DNA of 64,000 nt from positions 6,085 to 70,084 of the forward strand of contig CANRIB010000001.1 in the NCBI GenBank assembly GCA_947630575.1, written 5' to 3'. Source of the stretch: an uncultured Bacilli bacterium. GTDB lineage: Bacteria; Bacillota_I; Bacilli_A; RF39; UBA660. The translations under genes and the position numbers were made by a program. This document shows positions 2,951 to 63,729 of this stretch, piece after piece. The notes beneath the pieces were generated by a model, which had not been told where the DNA came from, ran no database searches, and saw only the letters and a program-made list of their open reading frames with translations. Every line of letters starts with the position of its first letter. The stretch's first letter is position 1.

Positions 2951-4384
2951 ATGATTGATAATAAGTCAATTATAAAGAAGGGAAGATTAATGAAAGTAGA
3001 GAGGTTAAGTAAAGGAAAAAGTAAGAGAATAATATTAGCTATAACAATAATAGTATTAGCAATAGGAATAATATATATAACAAATAGCAAAGCAAAATAT
3101 CAAGTAACCAAAAGTGTGCAAATAGTTAATGGTAATGTATCATATAGTCCATATGATTTTAAAATAATGGCTATGTATAAAAATGATGGAGGAGAAGATG
3201 CTCCCATAACAGAAATACCTGAAAATGGATATATGATAGACGAAACGAGGAGTTATTGTTTAAGAAATAATGAACAAATAAAGGGATTATTAAAAACAAT
3301 AAATGGCATTCACATCATATCTAAATTACATAGTAATGATAAATGTTATTTATGGTTTAATAAATCATTTACCGCTGAGGAACGAGTAACAGCTTTAGGC
3401 AAAACAACACAAACTGGCCAAATAAGTTTTGCAGAGTCAGATAAATCAGAACATAAAGATAGTAGTGACAATTCAATCATGTATAGTGGAACAGATAATG
3501 ATGGAATAACATATTACTTTAGAGGAGTAGTAAATGATAATTGGGTAAGATATGGAACTACAAGTGATAATAAAAGTATATGGTGGAGAATCGTTCGAAT
3601 AAATGGAGATGGCACAATAAGAATGATATATGCTGGAACAACAGATTTAAATTCAAATAATCCACCAGGAACAACAGGAACAGATACTCAAATAACAGTT
3701 GATGGAGAAAATACATTTCTTTATTCAAATTATGGATATGGAGATAATAAATATGTAGGCTATCAATATGCAGATAATAATGTACATGGAAAAGGAATAG
3801 ATAGCTATGCAGCAGATAGAGCAAATGAGTGGTTTAAAACAAATTTATTGGAAGAATGGAATAATGGCAATGGCAGAATAGATAATAATGCAGGATTTTG
3901 TGCAGATAGAACATCATATACAGATAATACAGGGACTTCCGAAGGAGGAGGAACCGGAACGACAACAACATATTATGCTGCTTATATAAGATTTCAAAAA
4001 GGGGGAAATTGGCAAAATCCGCAAAAACCAATATTCAAATGTACAAATACTAGTGATTTATTTACATATACAGGAGCAATAAATGGAACAAGGAGTTTAA
4101 CATATCCAGTAGGATTAATAACAGCAGATGAAGTAGTATATGCCGGAGGATTTGGAGGAAAAGATAATTATTCGTATTATTTATTTATAGGCAATGACTA
4201 TTGGACCATGTCTCCGTATTATTTTCGTGGTGCCTATGTTTACGTGTTCTATGTAAATCACAATGGCCAGCTCATTGGTAACCAAGTGAACTACAAGTAT
4301 GGTGTTCGCCCAGTAATAAATTTGAAGGCTGATACCCAATTTACAGGAAATGGAAAATCAGGAAGTCCATTTGTAGTACAATAA
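2951..4384 (+). CDS. Membrane-anchored surface protein, paralog T1, with C-terminal variable tail (alternative start ATG 2990)
   Basis: N-terminal TM segment. Central block YYFRG..NNWV..G....IWWRIVRINGDGTIRMIYAG is shared with the three paralogs. C-terminus reads GLITADEV.YAGG ... YWTMSP-[variable]-GVRPVINLKAD. Confidence 0.85.
   Translation: MIDNKSIIKKGRLMKVERLSKGKSKRIILAITIIVLAIGIIYITNSKAKYQVTKSVQIVNGNVSYSPYDFKIMAMYKNDGGEDAPITEIPENGYMIDETRSYCLRNNEQIKGLLKTINGIHIISKLHSNDKCYLWFNKSFTAEERVTALGKTTQTGQISFAESDKSEHKDSSDNSIMYSGTDNDGITYYFRGVVNDNWVRYGTTSDNKSIWWRIVRINGDGTIRMIYAGTTDLNSNNPPGTTGTDTQITVDGENTFLYSNYGYGDNKYVGYQYADNNVHGKGIDSYAADRANEWFKTNLLEEWNNGNGRIDNNAGFCADRTSYTDNTGTSEGGGTGTTTTYYAAYIRFQKGGNWQNPQKPIFKCTNTSDLFTYTGAINGTRSLTYPVGLITADEVVYAGGFGGKDNYSYYLFIGNDYWTMSPYYFRGAYVYVFYVNHNGQLIGNQVNYKYGVRPVINLKADTQFTGNGKSGSPFVVQ
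4208..4312 (+). other. Variable region VR1 (DGR-like) at the 3' end of T1
   Basis: ATGTCTCCG ... GGTGTTCGCCCA. A GC-rich island homologous to the cassettes. Encodes YYFRGAYVYVFYVNHNGQLIGNQVNYKY. Confidence 0.6.
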
Positions 4385-4759: not shown

Positions 4760-5943
4760 AGCATTATGTTAGGGGAAGAATTAAAACTAATAGTAGGACT
4801 AATTTACTTTTAAAATTAAATAGAATAAATGTGGATATTAGAAATATTAAGTATGAGAAAGATTATATATATTTTGATATATTGTCTAGTGATATTAAAA
4901 AGATTAAAAAATATTTGATTAGTTATAAATTTGAAGTAATAGATGAGTTAGGGATATATAAATTAAAAAAAGAATTAAGAGTTAATATGCTTTTTATTGT
5001 AAGTGTAGTTTTTGCTTGTGTAGTTTTTTTAATCTTGTCAAATATTATTGTTAAAGTTAATATTATCCATCAAAATAAAGATTTAAGAGAGCTTATAAAT
5101 GAAGATTTGAAAGAATATGGGGTAACTCCTATGAGTTTTAAAAAGAGTTATGATGCTTATGAAGAAATTATTTCAAAAATTAAAAATAAACATAAAGATA
5201 GAATAGAATGGTTAGAGATTGATGTTGATGGGATGGTTGTTAATATTAGGGTAGAAGAAAGAATTTTAAATGAAGAGAAAGAAGAAAAGGGTTATTGTCA
5301 TGTGGTGGCAAATACAAGTGGGATTATTACACATATATTGACAGCAAAAGGTGTAGCTTTGGTGGGAGTTAATGATTTTGTTAAAAAAGGGGATATTTTA
5401 ATTAGTGGAGAAGTTAAGTTAAATGAAGAAGTTAAAAATGATGTTTGTGCATCAGGTAGAGTGTATGCTGAAGTGTGGTATAATGTTAAAACTAGTTTGC
5501 CTTTAAATTATACATTAAAAGAAAAAACAGGGAAGATGCGCTACAACATAATGGTTAAAAATGATATGGGTGAATATGTTATTTTAAAATCAAGAGTTAA
5601 AGATAAAGAAGTTAAAAATAAATATTTAGTTAAGTTATTTGGTTATCAGGTTTATTTGCAAAAAGAATATGAAGTTATTCAATCTAATAAAAGATATACA
5701 GAAGAAGAAGCACTTAACAAAGCAATAAGTTTAGTTCATGAGAAATTAGCCGTTAAAGAAACGCAAACTCCTAAAATAATTAAAGAAAAAGTATTGCAAA
5801 AAAGTGTAAATAATGATACTTTAGATATAGAAATGTTTGTCGCAGTAGAAGAACAAATTGGGGTAGTAGAACCTTACACTAAAGAAATGGATAGTGATAC
5901 TAGTGATAGAACGGATAATGACAATAATAACTCAGTCAGTTGA
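4756..5943 (+). CDS. yqfD: Sporulation protein YqfD-like
   Basis: About 395 aa with one central TM segment. Sits upstream of the ybeY-dgkA-era block, as in Bacillus. Confidence 0.65.
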   Translation: MKHYVRGRIKTNSRTNLLLKLNRINVDIRNIKYEKDYIYFDILSSDIKKIKKYLISYKFEVIDELGIYKLKKELRVNMLFIVSVVFACVVFLILSNIIVKVNIIHQNKDLRELINEDLKEYGVTPMSFKKSYDAYEEIISKIKNKHKDRIEWLEIDVDGMVVNIRVEERILNEEKEEKGYCHVVANTSGIITHILTAKGVALVGVNDFVKKGDILISGEVKLNEEVKNDVCASGRVYAEVWYNVKTSLPLNYTLKEKTGKMRYNIMVKNDMGEYVILKSRVKDKEVKNKYLVKLFGYQVYLQKEYEVIQSNKRYTEEEALNKAISLVHEKLAVKETQTPKIIKEKVLQKSVNNDTLDIEMFVAVEEQIGVVEPYTKEMDSDTSDRTDNDNNNSVS

Positions 5944-7418: not shown

Positions 7419-8300
7419 ATGAGAAGTGGGTTTGTTAGTTTAATTGGAAGACCAAATGTAGGAAAATCAACTTTACTTAATACCATTATTAATTCAAAAG
7501 TAGCAATTACATCAAAAGTGGCTGGAACAACTAGGAATATAATTCAAGGTATATATAATGAAGAAAATTATCAAATTGTATTTATGGATACTCCAGGAAT
7601 AATTAGACCAATTAATAAACTAGGAAAAATAACTAATAAACAAGCGATGTCCCTTGTTAAAGATATTGATTGTTTACTTTTTGTAGTAGATGCTTCAGCA
7701 GGTTTAGGTAAAGGTGATAAGTTTATTATGGAAGTATTAAAAAAATCTAATGCTCCGGTGATTTTGGTTTTAAATAAAATAGATAAACTTACTAATGCGG
7801 ATATTATGTATAGTATAAATGAATATAAAGATTTGTATCCTTTTGCGGAGATAGTGCCAGTTTCGGCGTTAACTAAAGATAATGTAGAGCATTTAATAGA
7901 GGTTATTAAAACATATTTAAAAGATGAAATTAGATATTTTGATCCTAATATGAAAACTAGTAATAGTCCTTATTTTATGATAAGTGAAATAGTAAGAGAG
8001 AAGTTATTTCAAGTTATGACAGAAGAAATACCGCATAGTCTTACTTGTTATACGGTTTCGTTTGAAGAAAAAAAAGATATAGTTAATATATGTGTAGATA
8101 TAATTGTAGATAGAGATTCTATTAAAAAGATTATTATTGGAAAAAAAGGGGATACTTTAAAACAAGTGGGGATTGCATCAAGGATGGAATTAGAAAAAAT
8201 GTATAATAAAAAAGTATATTTAGAGTTGTTTGTAAAGACAGTCAAGAATTGGAAAGATAAAGAAAAATATATTAAAGAATTGGGATTTTTAGATTTTTAA
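7419..8300 (+). CDS. era: GTPase Era
   Basis: GRPNVGKST, DTPG and NKID G-motifs, plus a C-terminal KH domain. Confidence 0.95.
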   Translation: MRSGFVSLIGRPNVGKSTLLNTIINSKVAITSKVAGTTRNIIQGIYNEENYQIVFMDTPGIIRPINKLGKITNKQAMSLVKDIDCLLFVVDASAGLGKGDKFIMEVLKKSNAPVILVLNKIDKLTNADIMYSINEYKDLYPFAEIVPVSALTKDNVEHLIEVIKTYLKDEIRYFDPNMKTSNSPYFMISEIVREKLFQVMTEEIPHSLTCYTVSFEEKKDIVNICVDIIVDRDSIKKIIIGKKGDTLKQVGIASRMELEKMYNKKVYLELFVKTVKNWKDKEKYIKELGFLDF

Positions 8301-15097: not shown

Positions 15098-17086
15098 ATG
15101 TTAAGTAAGAAAAGAACAGTAATTATTGTAGAAATAATAATGGTAATACTTGCTATATCAATATTTGGAACTTTTGCTTTTTTATCGACAAGTGGTAAAC
15201 AAGAATTGGCCAATACTTTTACAGCAGGTTGTTTAAGTATAACCATAGAAGAAGAGGGAAGAGCAATTGATTTAGAAAATAGATATCCAGTAACAGATAT
15301 AGAAGGATTAGAACAAGAGGGATATACTTTTAAAATAAAGAATAATTGTAGTAATGATACAAATTATCAAATAAATTTAGAATCATTAAGTGATCCAACA
15401 GCAGATACAACATTAAAAGCCGATTATGTAAGAGTATCCCTTTCAAGTGATACAATGGATAATTTAATAACAACATTAAAAGAAAATGATGTAGCAACAT
15501 ATCATTCAGAAAATGCTTATGTATCTTATAATCTTTATAGTGGAATATTAAAAGGAAGTGCAAGTAAATCATTTACTTTAAAAGAATGGGTAGAATATAA
15601 TACAACCAAAGAAGAAGGAGCAAGTAAAGAATATAAATCACAGATAAATGTTGTAAGTGATACAAGAGTAGAAGTAACCCCAACACCAGAAGTAAAGTTT
15701 ACTTATAGTGATAAAAAATATACAGGAGTATTAACAGAAGAAGCATCAAATGTTAAATATTGTATGACAACAGATAATAAATGTGATGCAAATAAAGATA
15801 TAGAAGTAAGCAATAAAGAAATAACAATAGAGGCAGAAGAAAATGATAATAAACAAATGATATGTACTGAAATAGAAAATAAAACATATTGTAGTAATCC
15901 TGAATTAATAGAAAAAGTAAAACTATGTCCAGAAGGTTGGGATGCTTGTGAAACAATATTAGCCAATAGTGAAATAAAAGGACCAGTTGGAACAATAACA
16001 GGGCCGAGTTGTAATGGAGCAGCAGGAGACTCATCGTGTTATAGCAGTGATACTAAAAAGAATAATATGGGACAGAATGGAGTTTATGATACAGTAGATG
16101 ATTATGGTAAGACATATGTGTTTCGGGGTTTTGTTCAAAATAACTGGTTAAAGTTTGGCAAAGAAAATGGACAAGATATATGGTGGAGAATCATCCGAAT
16201 AAATGGTAATGGAACAATAAGATTAATATATGCTGGAAAGGGTAGTGTTGCTCCAAGTACTAAGACTGCGGATACTCAAATTGGTACTAGTACTTATAAT
16301 ACAAATTATAATGATAATAAATATGTAGGATTTATGTTTGGAACAGCATCAAATGGTAGTGCAAGTAGTGAAGGAACAGCAGGTACTACAGATGGAGCAA
16401 GAAACGGAACCAAGCCAGCCCATTTAAACAAATATGATAGTACTATAAAGGATAAATTAGATGCTTGGTGGGTAACAACAAATTTAGGGGATACTGACCA
16501 AGTAAAACATATAGATATAGAAACAGGATTTTGTAATGATAGAGAACCAGTAAAGTCTGCACATGGTAGTTATGGAACTACTACATACGGAAAAACTCAA
16601 GCAGGATATGCTCCGGCAGATAGAGTATGGCAAAGTGGAAGTACAAGTTATGATTCAACACAAGAACCAACATTAAAATGTGGCGATGATACATCACGTC
16701 AATATGATTTATTTACAGGTACTGATGCAAAAGGAGTTATGGTTGATGGAAAAACAATAGCAGGAAATAATGAATTAACCAATCCAGTAGGCTTAATAAC
16801 AATGGATGAAGTAATATATGCTGGAGGATTCGCAGGTGCAAATAACAATAATTATTGGTTATATACAGGTCAAGATTATTGGACAATGTCTCCGCGTGGC
16901 TTTGGTGACTACTGTGCTTACGTGTTCTATGTGGATTCGTATGGCTACCTCCACTACGACCGCGTGAACGACGCGTTGGGTGTGCGCCCAGTAATAAATC
17001 TGGAAGCTGATACAGTAATTGATACATTAAAGGGAGTAGATTTGGCAAATGGAGGAACTACAGATAATCCATACATAGTCAAATGA
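15098..17086 (+). CDS. Secreted/surface protein, paralog T2, with SipW-type signal peptide and C-terminal variable tail
   Basis: The N-terminus K-K-R...FGTFAFLSTSG...NTFTAG resembles the TasA/camelysin-class signal. The C-terminal roughly 330 aa are near-identical to T4 except for the variable tail. Confidence 0.9.
   Translation: MLSKKRTVIIVEIIMVILAISIFGTFAFLSTSGKQELANTFTAGCLSITIEEEGRAIDLENRYPVTDIEGLEQEGYTFKIKNNCSNDTNYQINLESLSDPTADTTLKADYVRVSLSSDTMDNLITTLKENDVATYHSENAYVSYNLYSGILKGSASKSFTLKEWVEYNTTKEEGASKEYKSQINVVSDTRVEVTPTPEVKFTYSDKKYTGVLTEEASNVKYCMTTDNKCDANKDIEVSNKEITIEAEENDNKQMICTEIENKTYCSNPELIEKVKLCPEGWDACETILANSEIKGPVGTITGPSCNGAAGDSSCYSSDTKKNNMGQNGVYDTVDDYGKTYVFRGFVQNNWLKFGKENGQDIWWRIIRINGNGTIRLIYAGKGSVAPSTKTADTQIGTSTYNTNYNDNKYVGFMFGTASNGSASSEGTAGTTDGARNGTKPAHLNKYDSTIKDKLDAWWVTTNLGDTDQVKHIDIETGFCNDREPVKSAHGSYGTTTYGKTQAGYAPADRVWQSGSTSYDSTQEPTLKCGDDTSRQYDLFTGTDAKGVMVDGKTIAGNNELTNPVGLITMDEVIYAGGFAGANNNNYWLYTGQDYWTMSPRGFGDYCAYVFYVDSYGYLHYDRVNDALGVRPVINLEADTVIDTLKGVDLANGGTTDNPYIVK
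16886..16990 (+). other. Variable region VR2 (DGR-like)
   Basis: ATGTCTCCG ... GGTGTGCGCCCA. Encodes RGFGDYCAYVFYVDSYGYLHYDRVNDAL. The flanks are near-identical to those of VR4. Confidence 0.7.
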
Positions 17087-25578: not shown

Positions 25579-26439
25579 ATGAATAATAGTAAGTTAGAAA
25601 CAATTTCTAATCTTTTTGAAGGAAAAGAGATAAGAAGCGTTTGGGATTCTCAGAAAGAGGATTATTATTTTAGTGTAGTTGATGTTATTAGGGCTTTGAC
25701 TGATAGCAAAGAGCCTAGAAAATATTGGTCAGTATTAAAAAGTAGATTAAAAAAAGAAGGTAGTGAACTGACTACAAAATGTAGTCAGTTGAAAATGGTT
25801 GCTCAAGATGGAAAAATGAGAAATACGGATACTTTAGATACTAAAGGAATACTAAGATTAGTTGAGTCTATTCCTAGTCCTAAAGCGGAACCATTTAAGT
25901 TATGGCTTGCTAATTTAGGGAGTGAAAGAATTGATGAGGTGTTTGATCCTGAAAAAGCTATTAAAAGAGCAATTTTATATTATCGTAAAAGAGGATATGA
26001 TGATAAATGGATTGAGGCAAGATTAAAAGGAATACTTAATAGAAATAAACTTACGGATATATGGAAAGATAGGGGTATTACAGAGAATTATGAATTTGGA
26101 ATTTTAACTAATGAGATATATAAAGAATGGTCAGGCATGAAAGCTAATGAGTATAAATCTTTTAAAAATATAAGAAAAGAATCTTTAAGGGATAATATGT
26201 CGGATATTGAAATAGCATTAACTGATTTAGGAGAGATTGCTACTCGAGAACTTATTAAAGAGCATAGACCTTATGGGTTGGAACAAAATAAAGAGATTGC
26301 TAAAATGGGTGGAAATGTTTCTAAAGTAGCTAGAGAGAATTTAGAACAGAAACTTGGGAAATCAGTAATTAGTAATCAAAATAATCTTCGTTATCAATAT
26401 TTAGATGAGAAACATAGATTAGAAAACAACGAGATTTAA
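25579..26439 (+). CDS. Bro-N domain protein (DinD/phage antirepressor-like)
   Basis: N-terminal FEGKEIRSVWDSQKEDYYFSVVDVIRALTDS matches the Bro-N pattern. Confidence 0.65.
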   Translation: MNNSKLETISNLFEGKEIRSVWDSQKEDYYFSVVDVIRALTDSKEPRKYWSVLKSRLKKEGSELTTKCSQLKMVAQDGKMRNTDTLDTKGILRLVESIPSPKAEPFKLWLANLGSERIDEVFDPEKAIKRAILYYRKRGYDDKWIEARLKGILNRNKLTDIWKDRGITENYEFGILTNEIYKEWSGMKANEYKSFKNIRKESLRDNMSDIEIALTDLGEIATRELIKEHRPYGLEQNKEIAKMGGNVSKVARENLEQKLGKSVISNQNNLRYQYLDEKHRLENNEI

Positions 26440-28267: not shown

Positions 28268-28393
28268 AATTCGTTTGAATCTTCTATTTTTTTATAATTG
28301 CAGGTTTTATAGTAGTCATCACCTTATAAAATATTGTAAAAATTAAATTCACAAGATTAAATCTATTTCAAAAAGAAAAGGTGGTGGTTAATT

Positions 28394-28450
28394 ATGACAA
28401 GAAGATAACTTTCTCTATTTATTCTAGTATTTGTAATACTGTTTAAATAG
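28394..28450 (+). pseudogene. Degenerate type I toxin-like mini-ORF (in-frame TAA at codon 5)
   Basis: RBS AAAGGTGGTGG, then ATG ACA AGA AGA TAA followed in frame by LSLFILVFVILFK-stop. A terminator hairpin and a convergent minus-strand promoter lie downstream, as in the intact module. Confidence 0.35.
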
Positions 28451-28572
28451 AAAAAGCACACTAAGGCTTCAACTGGAGTATTAGTGTGCACAACCAAAAT
28501 ATGGAGTGTACTTAACCATACGAAAGTTAAGTATATCCTTTTTTATTTTATGTAAGTTTCCTTGACAGATAC

Positions 28573-28601
28573 ATAATAACATAAGAATGATTTTTTTTCA
28601 A
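28573..28601 (-). promoter_or_regulatory. Convergent (antisense) promoter of TA-like module 1
   Basis: Minus strand TTGAAA, 17 nt, TATTAT. Confidence 0.45.
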
Positions 28602-28691
28602 GGTGGTTTAATTATATATAAATGGTCAAATTAAATGATTTTATTAGTAATAAAGTTCCTTTTTATAAGCCATAAATGCCTTTGCTTTAAC

Positions 28692-28720
28692 TTGAATGAA
28701 GTATAAAAATTTGATATAAT
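28692..28720 (+). promoter_or_regulatory. Promoter of the toxin mRNA, TA-like module 2
   Basis: TTGAAT, 17 nt, TATAAT with a TG extension (TGATATAAT). Confidence 0.55.
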
Positions 28721-28786
28721 TTGTGATAGGGAATATCAGTTGTTGAGTGTCTACCAAATCTCTAAATAGAGAGGAGGTTTGATATA

Positions 28787-28879
28787 GTGAAAACTAAAAC
28801 TTTTATTTTAAGAGTTTTAAAATTCATATCTATCATTTTATTTCTTCTTATCATTATGATAGTAGTAATAAAAAAATGA
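28787..28879 (+). CDS. Putative type I toxin, 30-aa hydrophobic peptide
   Basis: GTG start 9 nt after GAGAGGAGG. Peptide MKTKTFILRVLKFISIILFLLIIMIVVIKK has one TM helix and a KK tail. The hairpin TCTCTA-AA-TAGAGA abuts the SD sequence. Confidence 0.5.
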   Translation: MKTKTFILRVLKFISIILFLLIIMIVVIKK

Positions 28880-28987
28880 CACTTAATTCACATAAGAATT
28901 AAATGTCATGCTTAAAGAAATTTAGGGTTGACATTCAACTATGCAAAACTGAATGTTCCCTTTTTATTTTATGCAAGTTTCCTTGAC
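28872..28987 (-). ncRNA. Putative antisense antitoxin RNA overlapping the toxin 3' UTR (ends approximate)
   Basis: Would start about 7 nt after the minus-strand -10 box (28994-28999). On the minus strand, the hairpin at 28880-28910 is followed by a T-run at the toxin stop codon. Confidence 0.4.
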
Positions 28988-28993
28988 ATATTC

Positions 28994-29022
28994 ATAATAT
29001 CATAAAAACAGCTCTTTTTCAA
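28994..29022 (-). promoter_or_regulatory. Convergent (antisense) promoter of TA-like module 2
   Basis: Minus strand TTGAAA, 17 nt, TATTAT with a TG extension. Confidence 0.5.
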
Positions 29023-29079: not shown

Positions 29080-31785
29080 TTATTTTTTCCTTTTTAATTC
29101 TACTCCTTTTTCTTCTTTCTCTATTAATTCCTCTAAACTAATATGGAAATTATGGGAAATACTTTCGATAAGTGCTTCTATTTGTTTATTAGTATCACTT
29201 TTACTTTTGTATTTAGTTAAACTACTAGTTAAACTATCAAAAGTACTGGTATTTAAAATTTTAAATAAACCATCTAAACTGTATCTATTACTTATAAAAG
29301 TAGTAAATTCCTCGATAATATATTTTTCTAAATCTTTATTAAAATTAAATTTTGTTATATTTTTTTTGATAATATCTTCATCATCTGTAATAGTAATTAT
29401 CCATCCTTTTGATGCTTTAACTTTCATTTCTTCTTTAACCCATTTGCCTTTAATATATTTTTTTATAATAAATTCAAGATAACCATTTTCATTTTTAAAA
29501 ATAAATAAACATTCTTTATAATTACCAAAACAAGCTTTTAGGCCAAGACTATTTTGTTCAAATTCTTCAAATATTGTATCTTCATAAAGTAAATCGGGGA
29601 GATATTTTTTATTTTCACTAATTTTTAGTCTACCATCAAAAATGAAACCAAAATTACCATTTGATGATTGAAAGGCATAAATAGAAGAATCTATTTCTTT
29701 TCCTTCATAAATAGCTCTATTATAATTCCAAATATGGCGATAATTATATTTAGAAGAGCCCACTATCCATTCTTCAAAACATCTATGATAAACTATTTTA
29801 TTGCGATATATTAAATATTTTTGTAAATCAAAATCGTTGGTTAAATTATCAATTATTTCATTATGATGACCATAATATAAAGAAATTGAAATATTGGGAC
29901 TATCACATATTTTAGTATAGTTTTCTTCGATACATAAACAATAATTACCATATTTAGTTGTTATATCAATATAGCTTCTATTTAAAAGATGATTAAAACT
30001 ATAAAAATTATCATAATATCGTTCTATATACATATTTCTATCAGGAATAAATTTTAAAATTCCATAAGCCGGAAAATCTCCCCATTTATTTTGGATGAAA
30101 GCTCTTTTATTATGAGTAACTGTTTCTTTTGTTGTTGTATTATAATAAGTTATTATATTTCCATCATTTTTATTTATTACAAAATCATTATTAAATGGTA
30201 TTTTGATATTATCTATTATAAAACATCTTTTTAATGTGGCTTCAAATAAATATGTACCTTTGTTTAATTTTTTAAAAGAATGGGGAAAAACTATATTTTT
30301 ATCTCTAGATAAATTCAATATTTTATTAATTATTAAATTTTCTTCTTTAGTTAAAAATTTAGATGAGCTTGGTAAGTTAATAATTTCTTTTAATCCTTCA
30401 GGTAAATAATAATAATCTTTATCAGGGTAAATATCTTTTTGTAATATTTCATAAAGTCTAGCATCATACTGGTAATTTAAAGCTAACATTATACGATAAA
30501 TAGTTTCTAAGGGTAGTTCTTCTTCAAAATAAAAAGAATGTAATTCACGAATAATATCTAAATTATAATATTTTGTATAATTTATTTTAAAGTTTTTTAG
30601 AAAATTAATTAAGGCTTGTTTACTGTTCATGGTAAGGCATAAATTAAAGAGATATTTACTTTTTAAGATAGCTTTTGTATCTATTATATCTGGGCTACTT
30701 TTTAAAATATTTAATATGACATCTATTTCGGATGATTTATTTAATTCGCCATTTCCTTTTACTAAATCTTCTATTTTTTTGTTTATAATATTACTATAGC
30801 AAAGAAACTCAAAATCATTAGTTTTTTTATTTATAATTACTTCACTGATACCATTTAGACTTAAAATTAAGACATTAAACTTTATTTGATAAAAATCTTT
30901 TAAGTCTTCTTTTGAGATTAAGTCTTTACCATATTCATAAAATAACCAATATTTTATTTCTAAAGGTTCTATTAGTTTCATTAATGTATCTTTATTATTG
31001 AAACTAAATTCTAAAGTACAAATATTATCTAACCTTTTTTTTAAACTTTGTCCTTCTTCTTTATGTTTATATACCCATTCTTCTAATTCTTTTTCAATGA
31101 TAGCTAGATCCATTAAATTATTACTTAAGGCTATATTTTTATTTAATATTATTTTAGCATATTCTATAAGTTTATCTTTTTTAATTTCAATTATTTTTTC
31201 TTTTTTATTTTCTTCATTTTCTTCTAGTTTGTAAGAGTATTTATCTAGATAACTACTAGTTTCTAAAATTAAAGCTTTTTCTTTTACTAAGTAGGTAATT
31301 AAAATATTACTTAAGTTATTTATTTCATTTTTTAAAGTCGCTTTTTTATTTTTGCTAATAAATTTATGACTTAAAAGTATTTCTTGAAGGGCAATTAAAT
31401 TGGCTGTTACTTTAAATGACTCGTTTTTAATAGTTTTTAAATACAAAATTAGTTTGCGAGTTTTTATTAAGTAATTTATTTTATCTTCAAGACTTATTTT
31501 TTCTATTTTATCATCATAATTTAAAATATTATTTAAAATTATATCTAAATACATCAGCATATTATTAATTAATTCTTTGTTATTAATATCTAAACTGGTA
31601 ATAAATCTTTTACTATTTATTTTAACGAGATATTCTTTTTTTACTTTATCAATTAAATTTAACATATCAGGATTGTTTATATAATTTTCGCGAGTGGGAA
31701 GAGGGAACAAACTATTTAAGGGAATTATATCAATATTATTATTTGAGTTCTTAATTAGTTTTTTTAATAAAGCGATAATATTCAT
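29080..31785 (-). CDS. Large hypothetical protein (901 aa), orphan
   Basis: Uninterrupted 2.7-kb ORF. Very Lys/Asn/Ile-rich with no motif I recognise. No YxDD or NTPase motifs seen. Confidence 0.7.
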   Translation of the reverse strand: MNIIALLKKLIKNSNNNIDIIPLNSLFPLPTRENYINNPDMLNLIDKVKKEYLVKINSKRFITSLDINNKELINNMLMYLDIILNNILNYDDKIEKISLEDKINYLIKTRKLILYLKTIKNESFKVTANLIALQEILLSHKFISKNKKATLKNEINNLSNILITYLVKEKALILETSSYLDKYSYKLEENEENKKEKIIEIKKDKLIEYAKIILNKNIALSNNLMDLAIIEKELEEWVYKHKEEGQSLKKRLDNICTLEFSFNNKDTLMKLIEPLEIKYWLFYEYGKDLISKEDLKDFYQIKFNVLILSLNGISEVIINKKTNDFEFLCYSNIINKKIEDLVKGNGELNKSSEIDVILNILKSSPDIIDTKAILKSKYLFNLCLTMNSKQALINFLKNFKINYTKYYNLDIIRELHSFYFEEELPLETIYRIMLALNYQYDARLYEILQKDIYPDKDYYYLPEGLKEIINLPSSSKFLTKEENLIINKILNLSRDKNIVFPHSFKKLNKGTYLFEATLKRCFIIDNIKIPFNNDFVINKNDGNIITYYNTTTKETVTHNKRAFIQNKWGDFPAYGILKFIPDRNMYIERYYDNFYSFNHLLNRSYIDITTKYGNYCLCIEENYTKICDSPNISISLYYGHHNEIIDNLTNDFDLQKYLIYRNKIVYHRCFEEWIVGSSKYNYRHIWNYNRAIYEGKEIDSSIYAFQSSNGNFGFIFDGRLKISENKKYLPDLLYEDTIFEEFEQNSLGLKACFGNYKECLFIFKNENGYLEFIIKKYIKGKWVKEEMKVKASKGWIITITDDEDIIKKNITKFNFNKDLEKYIIEEFTTFISNRYSLDGLFKILNTSTFDSLTSSLTKYKSKSDTNKQIEALIESISHNFHISLEELIEKEEKGVELKRKK

Positions 31786-31958: not shown

Positions 31959-31987
31959 TTGAGGAAAGTATAAAAATTTGATATAAT
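31959..31987 (+). promoter_or_regulatory. Promoter of TA-like module 3
   Basis: TTGAGG, 17 nt, TATAAT (TGATATAAT). Repeat of 28692-28720. Confidence 0.45.
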
Positions 31988-32046
31988 TGAAATAGGGAAT
32001 ATCAGTTGTTGAGTGTCTACCAAATCTCTAAATAGAGAGGAGGTTT

Positions 32047-32145
32047 GAAGAAAAGAAAAATAGAACTTTTTATTATAAAAGTTCTAAATTCATTACTATC
32101 ATTTTATTTCTCCTAATCAATTTGATAGTAGTAATAAAAAAATGA
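32047..32145 (+). pseudogene. Type I toxin-like ORF copy lacking a canonical in-frame start
   Basis: The frame ending in ...KFITIILFLLINLIVVIKK-stop is homologous to 28787-28879. Indels relative to that copy remove the GTG start. Confidence 0.3.
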
Positions 32146-32253
32146 TACTCATTCGCTAGAATAAGTGCCTAAACAATTTATTTTGGGTAGACATTCAACT
32201 ATGCAAAACTGAATGTTCCCTTTTTATTTTATGCAAGTTTCCTTGACATATTC

Positions 32254-32282
32254 ATAATATCATAAAAACAACTTTTTTTCAA
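32254..32282 (-). promoter_or_regulatory. Convergent (antisense) promoter of TA-like module 3
   Basis: Minus strand TTGAAA, 17 nt, TATTAT. Confidence 0.45.
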
Positions 32283-32344
32283 GTGGGCTTATTACTTTAA
32301 TAAAAGCTAATACTTTTCTGTTATTTATATTAAGAGGTAAAATT

Positions 32345-32363
32345 AAAAAAGCCTAAAAGGCTT
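32345..32363 (-). terminator. Terminator downstream of tRNA-Thr
   Basis: AAGCCT-AAA-AGGCTT hairpin, followed on the minus strand by a T-run. Confidence 0.55.
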
Positions 32364-32373
32364 AATAACTAAA

Positions 32374-32447
32374 TGGTGCTGAATGACTGAATTGAACAGT
32401 CCTTTGAAGCTTACCATGCTTCCGTTCTACCACTAAACTAAATCAGC
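32374..32447 (-). tRNA. tRNA-Thr (anticodon GGU), CCA encoded
   Basis: Hand-folded cloverleaf. Acceptor stem GCTGATT/ATTCAGC has one T-T mismatch. D arm GTTT/GAAC. Anticodon stem GAAGC/GCTTC with loop ATGGTAA. T arm GACTG-TTCAATT-CAGTC. 3' end ACCA. Confidence 0.75.
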
Positions 32448-33732: not shown

Positions 33733-36099
33733 ATGAAATTTAAAATAACACCTAAAGATTTTTTGATTTTTTGTTTGTATTGTGTTTTATTATTGTATTT
33801 ATGTGCAATAGCAGTGCTTAATTTTTCTTCTTTTTTGAATGATGGAAAGTTTTATGGATTGTTACCATTTAAAGCTTTTACAGGAGATTATATTGTTTTA
33901 ACTTTGTTTATGTTTTTTATTTCTTTAGTTATTATTTTTACAAGTGTTTCTTCATATGTGTTTAATAGAGAAAAGGGGAAAGGATTAGGTATAAAATTAG
34001 GGGAAAAAACAGAAAGTGGTTATGCTAGATGGAGTACAGAAAAAGAAATTAAAACTGATGTAGGAATGGCAAAAGTTGATCCTAAAGCAGAAACTGTTAA
34101 TGCAGCGGGTATTCCTTTAATTAATAATGGAAAAGAAATTTGGGTTGATAATGGAGAATATCATAATTTAGTTATAGGTTCTACGGGTTCAGGTAAAACT
34201 CAGACTGTTGTTAAGCCAATGGTTAATTTACTTGCTAAAAAGGGTGAATCAATGATTATTACAGACCCTAAAGGTGAAATATATAAATATGCGGCAACCG
34301 CGTTAAAAGAAAGAGGATATAAAATTATTGTGCTTAATTTTAGAGAGCCTAATCATGGAAATGCTTGGAATCCTCTTACCCTTCCTTATCGTTATTTTAA
34401 AGAAGGAAATACAGATAAATCAACAGAGTTATTAGATGACGTAGCTTTAAATATTTTATATGATCAATCTAAAAAAGGGGGAGATTCAGAGTTTTGGGAG
34501 AAGAGTGCAGCAGATTATTTTTCAGGTTTAGCTTTAGGTTTATTTTATGATGCAAAAGAAAAAGAAGTTAATTTAAATAGTATTAATTATATGAGTACGA
34601 TTGGAGAAGAAAGATATGCAACTTCAACATATATTAAAGAATATTTTAATATGAAAGGACAAGATTCTAGTCCATATATATTTGCATCAAATACAATTAA
34701 TGCACCAAATGAAACTAGAGGAGGTATTTTATCTACTTTTAGACAAAAGATTAGACTTTTTTCTTCACGAGAAAGTTTAAGTGAAATGCTTGCCTATAGT
34801 GATTTTGATATGGCAAGTATAGGTAAAGAAAAAACAGCAGTATTTATGATTATTCATGATGAAAAGAAAACTTATCATGCTTTAATGACAATATTTATTA
34901 AACAATGTTATGAAACATTGATAGATGTGGCTCAAGAAAATGGAGGGAAACTTCCTTTTAGAACTAATTTTATCTTAGATGAGTTTGCTAATATGCCCCC
35001 ACTTAAAGATGTTGATTCAATGGTAAGTGCAGCGCGTTCAAGAGATATTAGATTTACTTTTATTATTCAAAACTTTGCCCAGTTAAATGATGTTTATGGA
35101 AAAGAAGTAGGAGAAATTATAAAAGGTAACTGTGGTAATTTAGTTTATTTGATATCTACAGAACTTGCAGCATTAGAAGAGATTTCAAAAATGTGTGGGG
35201 AAGTTAAATCTAAAGAAAAAGATAAGACAGTTTCAACACCTTTAGTAACTGTATCAGATTTACAGAAATTAAAATTATTTGAAGCAATTATTATTCGTTT
35301 GAGAAAAAATCCTTTTAGAACAAAGTTAAAACCAGATTTTGAAATGAATTGGGGGATGAATAGAGAAGAAGCTCCATATCCAGAAAGAGAAATTAAGAAA
35401 ATTGAATTATTTGATGTTAAAAATTATGTAACTGAAGAACGTCGTAAACAAATGATGAATAATTTAGAAAATAAAGATATGGATAATCCTTTTGCTAATC
35501 CATTTACTAATCCGTTTGGGCCAAGTAGTTCTTCAACATCATTTGGGGGAATGGGAAGTGTATCACCAATTGGTTCTAATCCTTTTAGTGGTGCTCCAAG
35601 TTCTATTCCAAATTCGGGAGCTTCACCATTTAGTCATAATCCAATGTTTGATAAGCCAATGAGTAGTTTATCAGATGCCGATATAGATGCAATGATGAAA
35701 GATATTGATAGAAGACTTAAAGAACTTGATGAAGAAGAAGCTAGAGAAAATGCTAAATTGGAAGAAAAGAAAAATAATTCCGATAATTTAGTAACTAATC
35801 CATTACAAAGTAGGGAAGAAAATAAAGAGGATACTTTAGAACAAAAATTTATTACAGAGAATCCTATTAAAGAACAACCAATTAATGAAGATAAAAAAAT
35901 AGAAGAAGTTAATGATAGTTCTTTGAAGCAAGAAGTTAAACCAAGTATTTTAGAACAAGATAATAAAATAGATACTCAACCTATAAACCAAGAAGGAAAT
36001 CAAGATAAACCAAAAATAAATGTGGATGCTGATAGTATCATTGTTAATGAAAATGTAGTTACTGATGATGAGTTCTTTGATGATTTCTTTAATGAATAA
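33733..36099 (+). CDS. VirD4/TraG-family type IV coupling protein-like ATPase with low-complexity C-terminal tail
   Basis: Two N-terminal TM helices, Walker A GSTGSGKT, TDPKGE, and Walker B FILDEFANMP. C-terminal NPF/Ser/Pro-rich and acidic tail. Confidence 0.8.
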   Translation: MKFKITPKDFLIFCLYCVLLLYLCAIAVLNFSSFLNDGKFYGLLPFKAFTGDYIVLTLFMFFISLVIIFTSVSSYVFNREKGKGLGIKLGEKTESGYARWSTEKEIKTDVGMAKVDPKAETVNAAGIPLINNGKEIWVDNGEYHNLVIGSTGSGKTQTVVKPMVNLLAKKGESMIITDPKGEIYKYAATALKERGYKIIVLNFREPNHGNAWNPLTLPYRYFKEGNTDKSTELLDDVALNILYDQSKKGGDSEFWEKSAADYFSGLALGLFYDAKEKEVNLNSINYMSTIGEERYATSTYIKEYFNMKGQDSSPYIFASNTINAPNETRGGILSTFRQKIRLFSSRESLSEMLAYSDFDMASIGKEKTAVFMIIHDEKKTYHALMTIFIKQCYETLIDVAQENGGKLPFRTNFILDEFANMPPLKDVDSMVSAARSRDIRFTFIIQNFAQLNDVYGKEVGEIIKGNCGNLVYLISTELAALEEISKMCGEVKSKEKDKTVSTPLVTVSDLQKLKLFEAIIIRLRKNPFRTKLKPDFEMNWGMNREEAPYPEREIKKIELFDVKNYVTEERRKQMMNNLENKDMDNPFANPFTNPFGPSSSSTSFGGMGSVSPIGSNPFSGAPSSIPNSGASPFSHNPMFDKPMSSLSDADIDAMMKDIDRRLKELDEEEARENAKLEEKKNNSDNLVTNPLQSREENKEDTLEQKFITENPIKEQPINEDKKIEEVNDSSLKQEVKPSILEQDNKIDTQPINQEGNQDKPKINVDADSIIVNENVVTDDEFFDDFFNE

Positions 36100-38416: not shown

Positions 38417-40432
38417 ATGAAAGATAAGAATAAAAGATTATATATATTAGTATCTATTCTATTAATAGGAGTAGGATTGACATTTGCATATTTTGTAGGA
38501 AAAACTATTTTTAAGGGAACAGGAGCAACAACAGAGGGAAGAACGGCAACCGTAAATGGTTCCACATTAGATATAAGTGGTAATATAGAGTTTGGTGATA
38601 AAGATATATATCCAGGACATCAAACATTATCCAAAGTAATAGCAACTGCAACAGGTAATAATGAACTTATCGCGTATAACTTAACATGGATAGGAACAAA
38701 TAATTTAAATACTAATTTAAAATATAAAGTATATGTATCAGAAGAAGAAAAAGAAATAAGTTTAACTTGTGAAAAGAAAAAGAAAGTAGTAAATGGAGCC
38801 CAACAATTAAATGAGGTATGTATAATAAATGGAGAATTAGGAGAACCAATAAATGAAGGAGAGATACCATCAAAACCAAAAGAAGAACAAACAATAAAGA
38901 TAACTAATACAGAATTTATAACATCAAAGAAAACAGGAACAATAAAATATTATTATATCATAGTAGAATATCCAGATAATGGAGATCAAAGTATAGATAT
39001 AGGAGAAGGATTTGAAGGAAAAGTATATGGAGAGATAAGTAATACAAAAGCCGATATAAATATAATAAGTGTAAATGTAGAGGGAGAAGATGGGAAATAT
39101 ACAAAACAAAGTGAAATACCAAAACAAGATAGTAATTTAACACTAAATACAAGTGATAGTCATTGTACAAATGATGCAACATTAGAATGGGATAATAGTG
39201 ATAGGAGTTTAATAGTAAATAATCTAACACAAAGTGGAACAGATTGTGAATTATATTTTTATGAGCCGACACCAGAAAAGACATTAAAAAAATTAGGAAT
39301 ATCAGAATCCGATGGAGTTATAACAGATATTACAGGTCCAAGTTGTAGTGGAAGTACTTCTTCGTCATGTTATAGTGGTGACTCTAGTCATAAAAATATG
39401 GCTCAAAATGGAATATATGATACAGTGGATGATTATGGAAAGAGCTATGTATATCGCGGTTTTGTTCAAAATAACTGGTTAAAGTTTGGCAAAGAAAATG
39501 GACAAGATATATGGTGGCGAATCATCCGAATAAATGGCAATGGAACAATAAGATTAATATATGCTGGAAAGGGTAGTACTGCTCCAAGTACTACGACTGC
39601 GGATACTCAAATTGGTACTAGTGCTTATAATACAAATTATAATGATAATAAATATGTAGGATTTATGTTTGGAACAGCATCAAATGGTAGTGCAAGTAGT
39701 GAAGGAACAGCAGGTACTACAGATGGAGCAAGAAACGGAACCAAGCCAGCCCATTTAAACAAATATGATAGTACTATAAAGGATAAATTAGATGCTTGGT
39801 GGGTAACAACAAATTTAGGGGATACTGACCAAGTAAAACATATAGATATAGAAACAGGATTTTGTAATGATAGAGAACCAGTAAAGTCTGCACATGGTAG
39901 TTATGGAACTACTACATACGGAAAAACTCAAGCAGGATATGCTCCGGCAGATAGAGTATGGCAAAGTGGAAGTACAAGTTATGATTCAACACAAGAACCA
40001 ACATTAAAATGTGGCGATGATACATCACGTCAATATGATTTATTTACAGGTACTGATGCAAAAGGAGTTATGGTTGATGGAAAAACAATAGCAGGAAATC
40101 ATGCATTAACCAATCCAGTAGGCTTAATAACAATGGATGAAGTAATTTATGCTGGAGGATTCGCAGGTGCAAATAACAATAATTATTGGTTATATACAGG
40201 TCAATATTATTGGACAATGTCTCCGTCTTGCTTTTATAACAGCGGGTCTAGTCAGTATGCTCGGGTGTTCATTGTGACTACGGATGGCAACCTCAACGAC
40301 CCGAACGTGAACAGCTCGAGCATCGGTGTGCGCCCAGTAATAAATCTGAAGGCTGATACAGTAATTGATACATTAAGGGGAGGAGATTTGGCAAATGGAG
40401 GAACTACAGATAATCCATACATAGTCAAATGA
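38417..40432 (+). CDS. Secreted/surface protein, paralog T4, with SipW-type signal peptide and C-terminal variable tail
   Basis: Starts 1 nt after the T3 stop. N-terminus ...GVGLTFAYFVGKT. C-terminal two-thirds are near-identical to T2 outside the variable tail. Confidence 0.9.
   Translation: MKDKNKRLYILVSILLIGVGLTFAYFVGKTIFKGTGATTEGRTATVNGSTLDISGNIEFGDKDIYPGHQTLSKVIATATGNNELIAYNLTWIGTNNLNTNLKYKVYVSEEEKEISLTCEKKKKVVNGAQQLNEVCIINGELGEPINEGEIPSKPKEEQTIKITNTEFITSKKTGTIKYYYIIVEYPDNGDQSIDIGEGFEGKVYGEISNTKADINIISVNVEGEDGKYTKQSEIPKQDSNLTLNTSDSHCTNDATLEWDNSDRSLIVNNLTQSGTDCELYFYEPTPEKTLKKLGISESDGVITDITGPSCSGSTSSSCYSGDSSHKNMAQNGIYDTVDDYGKSYVYRGFVQNNWLKFGKENGQDIWWRIIRINGNGTIRLIYAGKGSTAPSTTTADTQIGTSAYNTNYNDNKYVGFMFGTASNGSASSEGTAGTTDGARNGTKPAHLNKYDSTIKDKLDAWWVTTNLGDTDQVKHIDIETGFCNDREPVKSAHGSYGTTTYGKTQAGYAPADRVWQSGSTSYDSTQEPTLKCGDDTSRQYDLFTGTDAKGVMVDGKTIAGNHALTNPVGLITMDEVIYAGGFAGANNNNYWLYTGQYYWTMSPSCFYNSGSSQYARVFIVTTDGNLNDPNVNSSSIGVRPVINLKADTVIDTLRGGDLANGGTTDNPYIVK
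40217..40336 (+). other. Variable region VR4 (DGR-like, long form)
   Basis: ATGTCTCCG ... GGTGTGCGCCCA. Encodes SCFYNSGSSQYARVFIVTTDGNLNDPNVNSSSI. The 5' part matches cassette B and the 3' part matches cassette A. Confidence 0.75.
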
Positions 40433-46946: not shown

Positions 46947-47149
46947 GGTTAATCTGTTTAAGTGTATTGGTATTAGTCTTTGTATAACGCTGACTCTGAT
47001 GGTTATGCTCGCGTGTTCATTGTGAATTCGACTGGCAACCTCAACACCAACAACGTGAACAACACGTGGGGTGTGCGCCCAATATCCTTTTTAAAACTCA
47101 TATATCTGGTTAAGGCTTGGTATAGTAGAACTAGGATACAAGATTAATC
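46947..47149 (+). ncRNA. Template-repeat-like cassette RNA C
   Basis: TGATATAATTATAAT precedes GGTTAATCT. The template segment 46976-47081 starts GTCTTTG instead of GTCTCCG and ends GGTGTGCGCCCA. Conserved tail ends AGATTAATC. Confidence 0.65.
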
Positions 47150-63238: not shown

Positions 63239-63432
63239 GGTTAATCTATTATCTCGTGACATGTCTCCGTATAACTTTAACGGCAGCAATGCTAACGTGT
63301 TCTATGTGAATTCGAATGGCAACCTCGGCAACAACAACGTGAACAACACGAATGGTGTGCGCCCAATATCCTTGAATACCTCATATATCTGGTTAAGGCT
63401 TGGTATAGTAGAACTAGGATACAAGATTAATC
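63239..63432 (+). ncRNA. Template-repeat-like cassette RNA D
   Basis: -10 boxes (TATATAATTATAAT) precede GGTTAATCT. In the template segment 63261-63365, 13 of 35 codons are AAC/AAT in the target frame. Conserved tail ends AGATTAATC. Confidence 0.7.
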
Positions 63433-63534: not shown

Positions 63535-63729
63535 GGTTAATCTATTTTGGTTAGTTAGTCTCCGCGTAACTTTGATGGCAGCAATGCTAACGTGTTCTAT
63601 GTGTCTTCGGATGGCTACCTCAACAACAACACCGTGAACAACACGAGTAATGGTGTGCGCCCAATATCCTAAAGAAACTCATATACTTGATTAAGGTTTA
63701 GTATAGTAGGCTAGGATACAAGATTAATC
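63535..63729 (+). ncRNA. Template-repeat-like cassette RNA E
   Basis: GTGATATAATTATAAT precedes GGTTAATCT. Template segment is 63558-63663. Conserved tail ends AGATTAATC. Confidence 0.7.

Follow-up and report, generated by a model that had tools for sequence, protein, structure and literature searches.

A probable chromosomal type I toxin-antitoxin module in an uncultured gut Bacilli bacterium, with two decayed copies and many relatives, predicted from comparative sequence analysis

Background

The toxin-antitoxin (TA) systems TxpA/RatA, BsrG/SR4, BsrE/SR5 and YonT/SR6, which are of type I, consist of convergent genes, with the antisense RNA placed on the 3′ side, over the 3′ untranslated region (UTR) and the end of the toxin open reading frame (ORF), and a 3′-side overlapping antisense RNA is the rule in Gram-positive type I families (PMC8594479). 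In the Fst/RNA II (par) and SprA1/SprA1as families the two RNAs interact outside the overlap (PMC8594479). Locks between the Shine-Dalgarno (SD) sequence and an anti-SD, terminator stem-loops, and long-distance pairing between the 5′ and 3′ ends are the features by which the authors of T1TAdb recognise type I toxin messenger RNAs (mRNAs), and the long-distance pairing is an accepted feature of such mRNAs (PMC8594479). Type I systems are known from few lineages, which a 2025 paper puts down largely to search methods that rely on similarity to known loci (PMC12390103). The locus described here, module A (positions 28692–29022), lies in a stretch of 64,000 nt, hereafter the window, from an uncultured Bacilli bacterium (GTDB lineage Bacteria; Bacillota_I; Bacilli_A; RF39; UBA660; assembly GCA_947630575.1, contig CANRIB010000001.1, positions 6,085 to 70,084 of the forward strand). 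Going by its sequence and that of its relatives, it is probably a chromosomal type I TA module, and its family is apparently undescribed in the libraries and literature searched; the literature search gave no account of type I systems in these uncultured gut Bacilli lineages.

Organization of module A

A preliminary description of this DNA had proposed a plus-strand promoter, a leader hairpin abutting the SD sequence, an ORF with a GTG start and two hairpins with a T-run, faced on the minus strand by a TG-extended promoter and by a hairpin with a T-run at the toxin stop codon. All of these elements are present, at the positions given in Table 1. The TG-extended –10 box of the toxin promoter is followed by AGGRA..., and the same arrangement is seen in relatives of module A. 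Within the leader, which is about 60 nt long, TCTCT (28759–28763) and AGAGA (28768–28772) form a stem that, together with ACC/GGT, closes on the SD sequence GGAGG (28773–28777). The module A sequence has no leader ORF, and its antisense RNA lies on the 3′ side. Hairpin A is the predicted terminator of the antisense RNA, and its U-run is complementary to the toxin's final Lys codons and stop. Hairpin B doubles as the 3′ partner of the mRNA 5′ element. The exact peptide of module A was not among the called genes in the assembly index.

Table 1. Positions of module A, its decayed copies and the adjacent tRNA gene in the window (minus-strand features are given in the direction of transcription where they belong to module A)
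Feature	Position	Strand	Remarks
Toxin promoter TTGAAT-17-TATAAT, TG-extended –10	28692–28720	+	predicted transcription start about 28727–28728
Toxin mRNA 5′ element AGGGAATATCAGTTGTTGAGTGTCTACC	28728–28755	+	pairs with both arms of the 3′ terminator hairpin
SD-sequestering local hairpin ACC...TCTCT / AGAGA GGAGGT	28753–28778	+	
Toxin ORF, GTG start, 30 aa MKTKTFILRVLKFISIILFLLIIMIVVIKK, TGA stop	28787–28879	+	near-identical peptides in many loci
Hairpin A, 14 bp + T-run	28909–28876	–	predicted intrinsic terminator of the antisense RNA
Hairpin B (28925–28960) with TTTTTATTTT (28961–28970)	28925–28972	+	predicted toxin mRNA terminator
Invariant 26-nt core TTTATTTTATGCAAGTTTCCTTGACA	28963–28988		on the minus strand, first ~25 nt of the predicted antisense RNA
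Predicted antitoxin RNA, ~118 nt	28987–28868	–	complementary to mRNA 3′ UTR and last ~3 codons
Antitoxin promoter TTGAAA-17-TATTAT, TG-extended –10	29022–28994	–	conserved in related loci
Module C, decayed	28290–28620	+	own minus-strand promoter at 28601–28573
Module B, decayed	31959–32300	+	promoter, leader and SD nearly base-for-base as in A; 163 nt, 85% overall
tRNA-Thr(GGT)	32374–32447	– (antisense-RNA strand)	3′ end 126 nt from the module B core

Promoter-like hexamers number 28 in the window (24% G+C) compared with 24.9 expected in shuffled sequences, a difference that is not significant alone. Since such motifs are no commoner than in shuffles, the case for module A rests on comparison, both with the other copies in the window and with related loci elsewhere.

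Decayed copies in the window

Repeat finding and alignment gave three copies of the module in the window, of which only A is intact; B and C both keep the antisense gene. In module B the start codon has been lost (GTG to AAG), the sole remaining TTG stands 1 nt after the SD sequence, and the frame is shifted by a 1-nt deletion, while the 3′ UTR, the core (32223–32248) and the antisense promoter show 96% identity to module A. The toxin remnant of module C (28394–28450) reads MTRR, a stop, LSLFILVFVILFK and a second stop, i.e. it has a nonsense mutation at codon 5, and it is of a different toxin type. Its gene for an antisense-type small RNA (sRNA; about 28566–28445, minus strand) is intact and has the same three-part fold as in A. 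A broken toxin ORF beside an intact antisense gene is a frequent pattern in the family, and includes two of the three window copies.

Modules A and B are separated by an ORF of 901 codons (29080–31785, minus strand) of about 20% G+C, which has no Pfam or PADLOC match. Proteins identical to its product were found only in five gut metagenome contigs, where the neighbours are the same.

A family of related modules

All three window copies share a 26-nt core, TTTATTTTATGYAAGTTTCCTTGACA, which runs from the last part of the mRNA terminator U-run into the first part of the predicted antisense RNA. When one genome per species was scanned for exact matches to this core, at least 119 stretches were found to have it, and the family counts given below come from the matches listed. 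Nearly all are metagenome-assembled genomes (MAGs) labelled as uncultured Bacilli, Tenericutes, Mollicutes or Erysipelotrichaceae, recovered from rabbit, mouse, chicken, goat, cattle and human guts. Upstream sequence is long enough to judge in 116 of the listed copies. In 94 of these, an ORF of 24–33 codons with an SD sequence before it lies on the same strand and ends 59–102 nt upstream of the core; in the remaining 22 the toxin gene is truncated or frameshifted and the antisense part is kept.

The peptides fall into at least five sequence families, represented by MKTKTFIIKVLKLIAIILFLLIIMIVVIKK (the window type), MKKKDLLISFLILIIILLIVSLMILSIKK, MSKKDFLIFSLIIIILLLIVLLFVILK, MTKREFSQFIIILLLFLVVIILLLK and MRKSEKYLCTIIILLIIVILIILIKIVPTV. 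They are all of a single design, in which a K/R-rich N-terminus is followed by some 20 hydrophobic residues and the C-terminus is K or KK. The peptide gene is a small (<60 aa) hydrophobic ORF with its own promoter and SD sequence, as in the type I class. Variation within families is lowest at second codon positions, a crude ratio of nonsynonymous to synonymous polymorphism (pN/pS) is 0.2–0.6, and residues are swapped among I/V/L/F and between K and R. These substitution patterns point to a hydrophobic peptide that is translated. The stop codon is TGA, TAG or TAA at the same position among near-identical peptides, and TGA terminates 7 of 42 long frames in the window. On both grounds TGA is read as a stop, under the standard bacterial code, and code 4 (TGA = Trp), prompted by the Tenericutes labels, was rejected.

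Modules also occur in tandem arrays in which they directly abut, such as four modules in one stretch (L104, three of them spaced 344–354 nt) and three spaced 475 nt in another (L071). Arrays sometimes mix toxin families while the cores stay identical. One copy (L078, core at 7743) is a chimera, with a window-type leader 5′ element and a 3′ hairpin of another type, so that its 5′–3′ pairing is mismatched; this suggests recombination between modules.

The modules would represent a new and well-defined family, with at least five toxin types spread over more than 100 genome stretches. Its hosts, genome-reduced uncultured gut Bacilli, are a group for which next to no RNA biology has been recorded. 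A full structural model can be drawn from comparison alone; it covers the promoters, the SD lock, the covarying 5′–3′ closure of the mRNA and the boundaries of the antisense RNA, and is directly testable in a surrogate host.

Predicted structure of the toxin mRNA

The leader follows one plan in all families: a TG-extended –10 box, about 6 nt, the 5′ element (A)GGRAYA..., an anti-SD, a loop, the SD sequence and the start codon. Anti-SD and SD covary across families (ACCTCC/GGAGGT, CTCCTTT.../...AAGGAGG and CTTTCCCTTTC/AGAAAGGTGG) and their complementarity is kept. In a thermodynamic model the probability that the SD is unpaired is about 0.23, i.e. it is mostly paired.

The 5′ element is predicted to pair with the other end of the mRNA. 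For the window mRNA the partners are AGGGAAUAUCAG with CUGAAUGUUCCCU and GUUGAGUGUC with GACAUUCAAC, so that both arms of the terminator hairpin are engaged. The mean duplex energy between leader and 3′ UTR is –34.3 kcal/mol for cognate pairs compared with –22.2 kcal/mol for non-cognate pairs. Means within one family range from –27 to –35, and means across families from about –11 to –29, with the related families F2 and F3 giving the closest cross-pair. When 92 full mRNAs were folded by minimum free energy (MFE), a median of 25 of the first 35 nt was paired with the 3′ UTR. In an alignment of 50 sequences, pairing in the inner 5′–3′ helix reaches 86%, and 12 of the 14 pairs have changes in both partners. 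For the two-helix structure tested as a whole, the covariation score is 0.367, compared with 0.188 at most when the partners are slid. The outer helix (helix 1) is only 58% paired on the MAFFT alignment, a poor score that arises only because its register shifts between families.

The window mRNA (28727–28972) folds at –71.3 kcal/mol (z = –8.2), and the 5′–3′ closure is present in both the MFE and the centroid structures. Even in this closed form the loop of the terminator hairpin is single-stranded. By the criteria used for the type I class (PMC8594479), the mRNA has a structure that would prevent premature translation.

The predicted antisense RNA

The minus-strand promoter is conserved in related loci as TTGnnA, a 17-nt spacer and TGnTATTAT or TATGAT. 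In the window the predicted antisense RNA starts at G 28987, reads GUCAAGGAAACUUGCAUAAAAUAAAAAGG..., and consists of a 5′ mini-hairpin (CAAG-GAAA-CUUG), an A/U-rich single strand, a central hairpin (B′), a linker, and a terminator hairpin (A′) with a U-run. Its fold (28987–28868) has an energy of –31.9 kcal/mol (z = –4.55). When the two strands are folded over the same bases, the minus strand gives the better fold in every family; in the window the plus-strand value is –27.3 kcal/mol, and one pair of hairpin A there, G-U on the minus strand, becomes a C-A mismatch on the plus. Both the 5′ mini-hairpin and the central hairpin are recovered by RNAalifold, with five compensatory pairs in the central one.

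The predicted overlap of antisense RNA and mRNA (28868–28972) is about 100 nt, and comprises the 3′ UTR and the last three codons or so. Hairpin B′ is the complement of the mRNA terminator hairpin. It therefore carries the sequence of the mRNA 5′ element, and would compete with it for the 3′ UTR. The mRNA leader and the antisense RNA are of the same sense and not complementary to each other.

The first part of the antisense RNA is nearly constant. Across 135 copies of the core in the fetched DNA, which include bystanders not selected by the core search, eight have a single changed position and no copy has two to five; compensatory changes are absent from the 4-bp stem of the 5′ mini-hairpin. 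This invariance points to a constraint on the sequence itself. Inspection by eye found no complementarity of the invariant 5′ domain to toxin leaders or to the 3′ end of 16S ribosomal RNA.

Proposed mechanism

The interpretation as a type I TA module, already put forward in the preliminary description, is supported by the features seen among the related loci: the conserved hydrophobic ORF, the covarying SD lock, the 5′–3′ pairing, the conserved promoter, 5′ end and terminator of the antisense RNA, the tandem copies and the decay of ORFs in copies that keep the antisense gene. On the mechanism proposed here, a toxin mRNA of about 245 nt (about 28727–28972) would encode a 30-residue single-pass membrane peptide and would be built for poor translation. 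Its SD sequence would be held in the local hairpin by the upstream anti-SD, and its first 28 nt or so would pair with the two arms of the terminator hairpin of the same molecule, which would close the mRNA at both ends. A convergent promoter, 20–60 nt past the mRNA terminator, would give rise to an antisense RNA of about 118 nt (about 28987–28868). This RNA would contact the exposed loops of the two 3′ UTR hairpins, zip up about 100 bp and displace the 5′ end of the mRNA. The duplexed mRNA, with its 5′ end freed, would then decay by the action of double-strand-specific and 5′-end-dependent RNases, as in the Bacillus 3′-overlap systems. Since the mRNA would be handed to RNases in this way, the peptide would be made only when the antisense RNA runs short. 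The production of both RNAs, the toxicity of the peptide and the RNase step are parts of the model that we infer. For a toxic peptide neutralised by the RNA, the one indirect support is the frequent loss of the ORF from copies that keep the antisense gene.

Comparison with known systems

The preliminary description had likened the locus to txpA/RatA, bsrG/SR4 and the Enterococcus par locus. For the first two, and likewise for BsrE/SR5 and YonT/SR6, the likeness holds for the layout: the genes are convergent, and the predicted antisense RNA covers the 3′ UTR together with the last part of the ORF. A small hydrophobic peptide, an SD sequence in a double-stranded region and a strong-looking antitoxin promoter are also shared with this group. 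It does not extend to sequence, as no known toxin or antitoxin family was matched, whether by peptide or by RNA (Pfam, NCBIfam, Rfam). Module A also differs from the group in that it is not on prophage-like DNA, as judged from phage records, IMG/VR and its ordinary neighbours. Further differences are that the extreme 5′ end of its mRNA pairs with its own terminator hairpin, that the antitoxin 5′ domain is identical across five toxin families, and that the module often stands about 80 nt after a transfer RNA (tRNA) gene.

Module A is like par (Fst/RNA II) and SprA1/SprA1as in that it has a Gram-positive host, convergent transcription and a single transmembrane helix in a peptide of about 30 aa. 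The RNAs of par interact through 5′ repeats and share one bidirectional terminator. The comparison with par was not sustained, in that module A has two separate terminators and a perfect overlap of about 100 nt, and its leader is not complementary to the antisense RNA. Nor did the peptides match any Pfam family at E≤10, in a library assumed to contain the Fst_toxin model.

A functional analogy, though not a homology, exists with hok/Sok and AapA1/IsoA1. The full-length mRNAs of hok (plasmid R1) and Helicobacter aapA1 are closed 5′ to 3′, and 3′ trimming triggers their refolding. Module A has the same closure of the full-length mRNA. In these two systems, which have Gram-negative hosts unlike that of module A, the antisense RNA lies inside the mRNA and targets its 5′ part, whereas the antisense RNA of module A targets the 3′ element with which the mRNA 5′ end pairs. 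The 3′ pairing partner in hok and aapA1 helps to hide the SD sequence, while the SD lock of module A is local and predicted to be independent of the 3′ end. Unlike Hok/Sok, module A has no Hok-family peptide (no Pfam match) and no mok-like leader ORF, and its antisense RNA is on the 3′ side.

Weighing of the evidence

Several results weigh against module A being a type I TA module. None of six representative peptides matched a family in Pfam or NCBIfam at E≤10, and an Rfam search with both strands, at the gathering threshold and at E≤10, returned only a chance-level score for LhrC (23.8 bits, threshold 110). The modelled accessibility of the SD sequence is unchanged when the 3′ UTR is blocked or absent. 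The idea that antisense binding at the 3′ UTR alters SD accessibility was rejected for this reason, and a direct translational effect of the antisense RNA is not supported. Structure alone does not explain the invariant first 25 nt or so of the antisense RNA, in which 135 copies show no compensatory change. Contigs from gut metatranscriptomes carried only the shared core of relatives, without direction, and with a peak of coverage on the core itself.

RNA of the window organism was present in no public RNA run. DNA carry-over is possible for the contigs just mentioned, as coverage of the RNA-run contigs extends into the promoter. In three mouse runs described as "transcriptomic" that contain one relative (L065), the flanking genes are covered evenly, in a DNA-like manner. 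In one of the runs (X26), depth over the toxin/antisense overlap of this relative (4766–4851) is 59, against 12.8 in the flanking genes, an excess of 4.6-fold that was seen in that one run and could reflect either expression or a multi-copy sequence.

Other explanations of the locus have to account for the same comparative data. The small ORF might encode a small membrane protein that does no harm, such as one regulating a transporter or membrane complex, with the antisense RNA as an ordinary cis-regulator. Many bacterial small membrane proteins have this very shape, a charged N-terminus and one transmembrane helix, and no toxin family is matched by the peptides, which also gave no match in PADLOC or in PDB sequence searches. 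A double lock on translation and on the mRNA ends would be unexpected for an accessory protein, however, as would tandem multi-copy arrays, five diverged peptide families with one antisense 5′ domain, and frequent loss of the ORF with the antisense gene kept. No conserved partner gene was found among the nearest neighbours checked beside the modules, and we regard this explanation as unlikely. Slightly less probable still is that the minus-strand RNA acts mainly in trans, its invariant 5′ domain being a seed for other targets and its overlap with the peptide gene being secondary. Such a role would fit a domain of about 25 nt that is invariant in all families and lies outside the predicted coverage of the toxin mRNA, a gene that is multi-copy like those of some regulatory sRNA families, and the persistence of orphan copies that have lost the toxin. 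It is opposed by the rest of the RNA, which co-varies with its own toxin 3′ UTR, always in cis, and also by the lack of a conserved complementary target in the toxin leaders (by inspection) and of an Rfam match, the LhrC score being far below its threshold. A chance meeting of promoter-like and hairpin motifs in AT-rich DNA between genes is suggested by nothing beyond the ordinary number of promoter-like sites in the window (see above). It is already refuted by the comparative data, i.e. conservation of the whole arrangement in at least 119 stretches from many species, covariation, and the folding z-scores of –8.2 and –4.55, and its remaining probability is negligible. The type I TA module is preferred over all three.

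Placement beside tRNA genes and possible mobility

In 46 of the 122 listed copies (38%) the 3′ end of a tRNA or transfer-messenger RNA (tmRNA) gene lies 50–134 nt (mode 77–81) beyond the core. All 46 of these neighbours are on the antisense strand, and they comprise seven kinds of RNA gene (six tRNA species and tmRNA); only two tRNAs occur on the opposite side of the listed modules. Beside different tRNAs the junction (...ACTCGAAAGTTCGAGTTTCCTATCAATC, then TGG) remains conserved, as far as the CCA end, and the junction hairpin is nearly exclusive to modules (26 of 29 occurrences). In one stretch (L117) the 3′ part of the adjacent tRNA-Arg recurs as a 59-nt copy, 95% identical, bracketing the whole module of about 400 nt (–353 to +130 from the core), which looks like an insertion-site duplication. 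This is the only target duplication at a tRNA among the 46 tRNA-adjacent copies. In the window, the 126-nt spacer between the core of module B and tRNA-Thr (32248–32374) is without the conserved junction hairpin.

No integrase or transposase was found among the ten nearest toxin-side neighbours checked, those with Pfam matches being ordinary genes. With this result, and a tRNA duplication in 1 of 46 copies, the view that modules are the edges of larger integrated elements was rejected. Searches with blastn against plasmid and phage records, and with the core pattern against IMG/VR, gave no match.

It is possible, if rather doubtful, that the module is primarily a small mobile cassette, or the end piece of one, with insertion beside the 3′ ends of tRNA and tmRNA genes. 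The 26-nt block and the junction would then be recombination or insertion sequences acting at the DNA level, and the toxin/antisense pair would be addiction cargo, which adds a layer to the TA interpretation and does not exclude it. The one-sided placement in 46 of 122 copies, the conserved junction with its module-specific hairpin, the bracketing tRNA-Arg repeat, the chimera of two families described above and the lack of compensatory variation in 135 cores all speak for such a cassette. The rarity of target duplications, the lack of an integrase or transposase among the toxin-side neighbours, the absence of copies from the plasmid, phage and IMG/VR collections, and the 62% of listed copies with no adjoining tRNA speak against it. 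Taken together, the invariance of the core and the placement beside tRNAs suggest a small mobile cassette, without proving it.

A wider picture may be drawn, tentatively, in which the modules form a superfamily of self-contained cassettes of about 350–450 bp that move between uncultured gut Bacilli and insert precisely after tRNA and tmRNA genes. These would swap toxin and hairpin parts around an invariant antitoxin 5′ "handle", a sequence-specific site for a host or element factor, and their antitoxin would mimic the mRNA 5′ end to compete for the 3′ terminator hairpin. To our knowledge, control by a 5′-end mimic is not described for type I systems. The invariant antitoxin 5′ domain and the fixed-distance placement beside tRNAs bear on how such cassettes would move and on what would recognise them.

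A gene for a type IV secretion coupling protein of the TraG/VirD4 type lies at 33733–36099 of the window, 1.3 kb beyond the tRNA, and hints at a conjugative element beside the modules.

Other observations in the window

The window contains a set of G+C-rich, AAC-rich repeats of about 80–100 nt. Four are intergenic (2146–2224, 47006–47084, 63290–63368 and 63585–63663), and three lie in the 3′ ends of ORFs: 16915–16993 (in ORF 15098–17086), 4237–4315 (in 2951–4384) and 40219–40318 (in 38417–40432). Between the intergenic copy at 63290 and the genic copy at 16915, 13 adenines differ and only three other bases do. Judging by these two copies, such adenine-specific differences are the pattern of the template and variable repeats of a diversity-generating retroelement. 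No reverse transcriptase was found among the 19 window ORFs scanned, and the window ends about 340 nt after the last AAC-rich repeat. Two of the proteins that carry the repeat match DUF6273.

A protein with a Bro-N domain, encoded at 25579–26439, is a full-length match to the PADLOC candidate defence family PDC-S13 (E = 1.7e-116).

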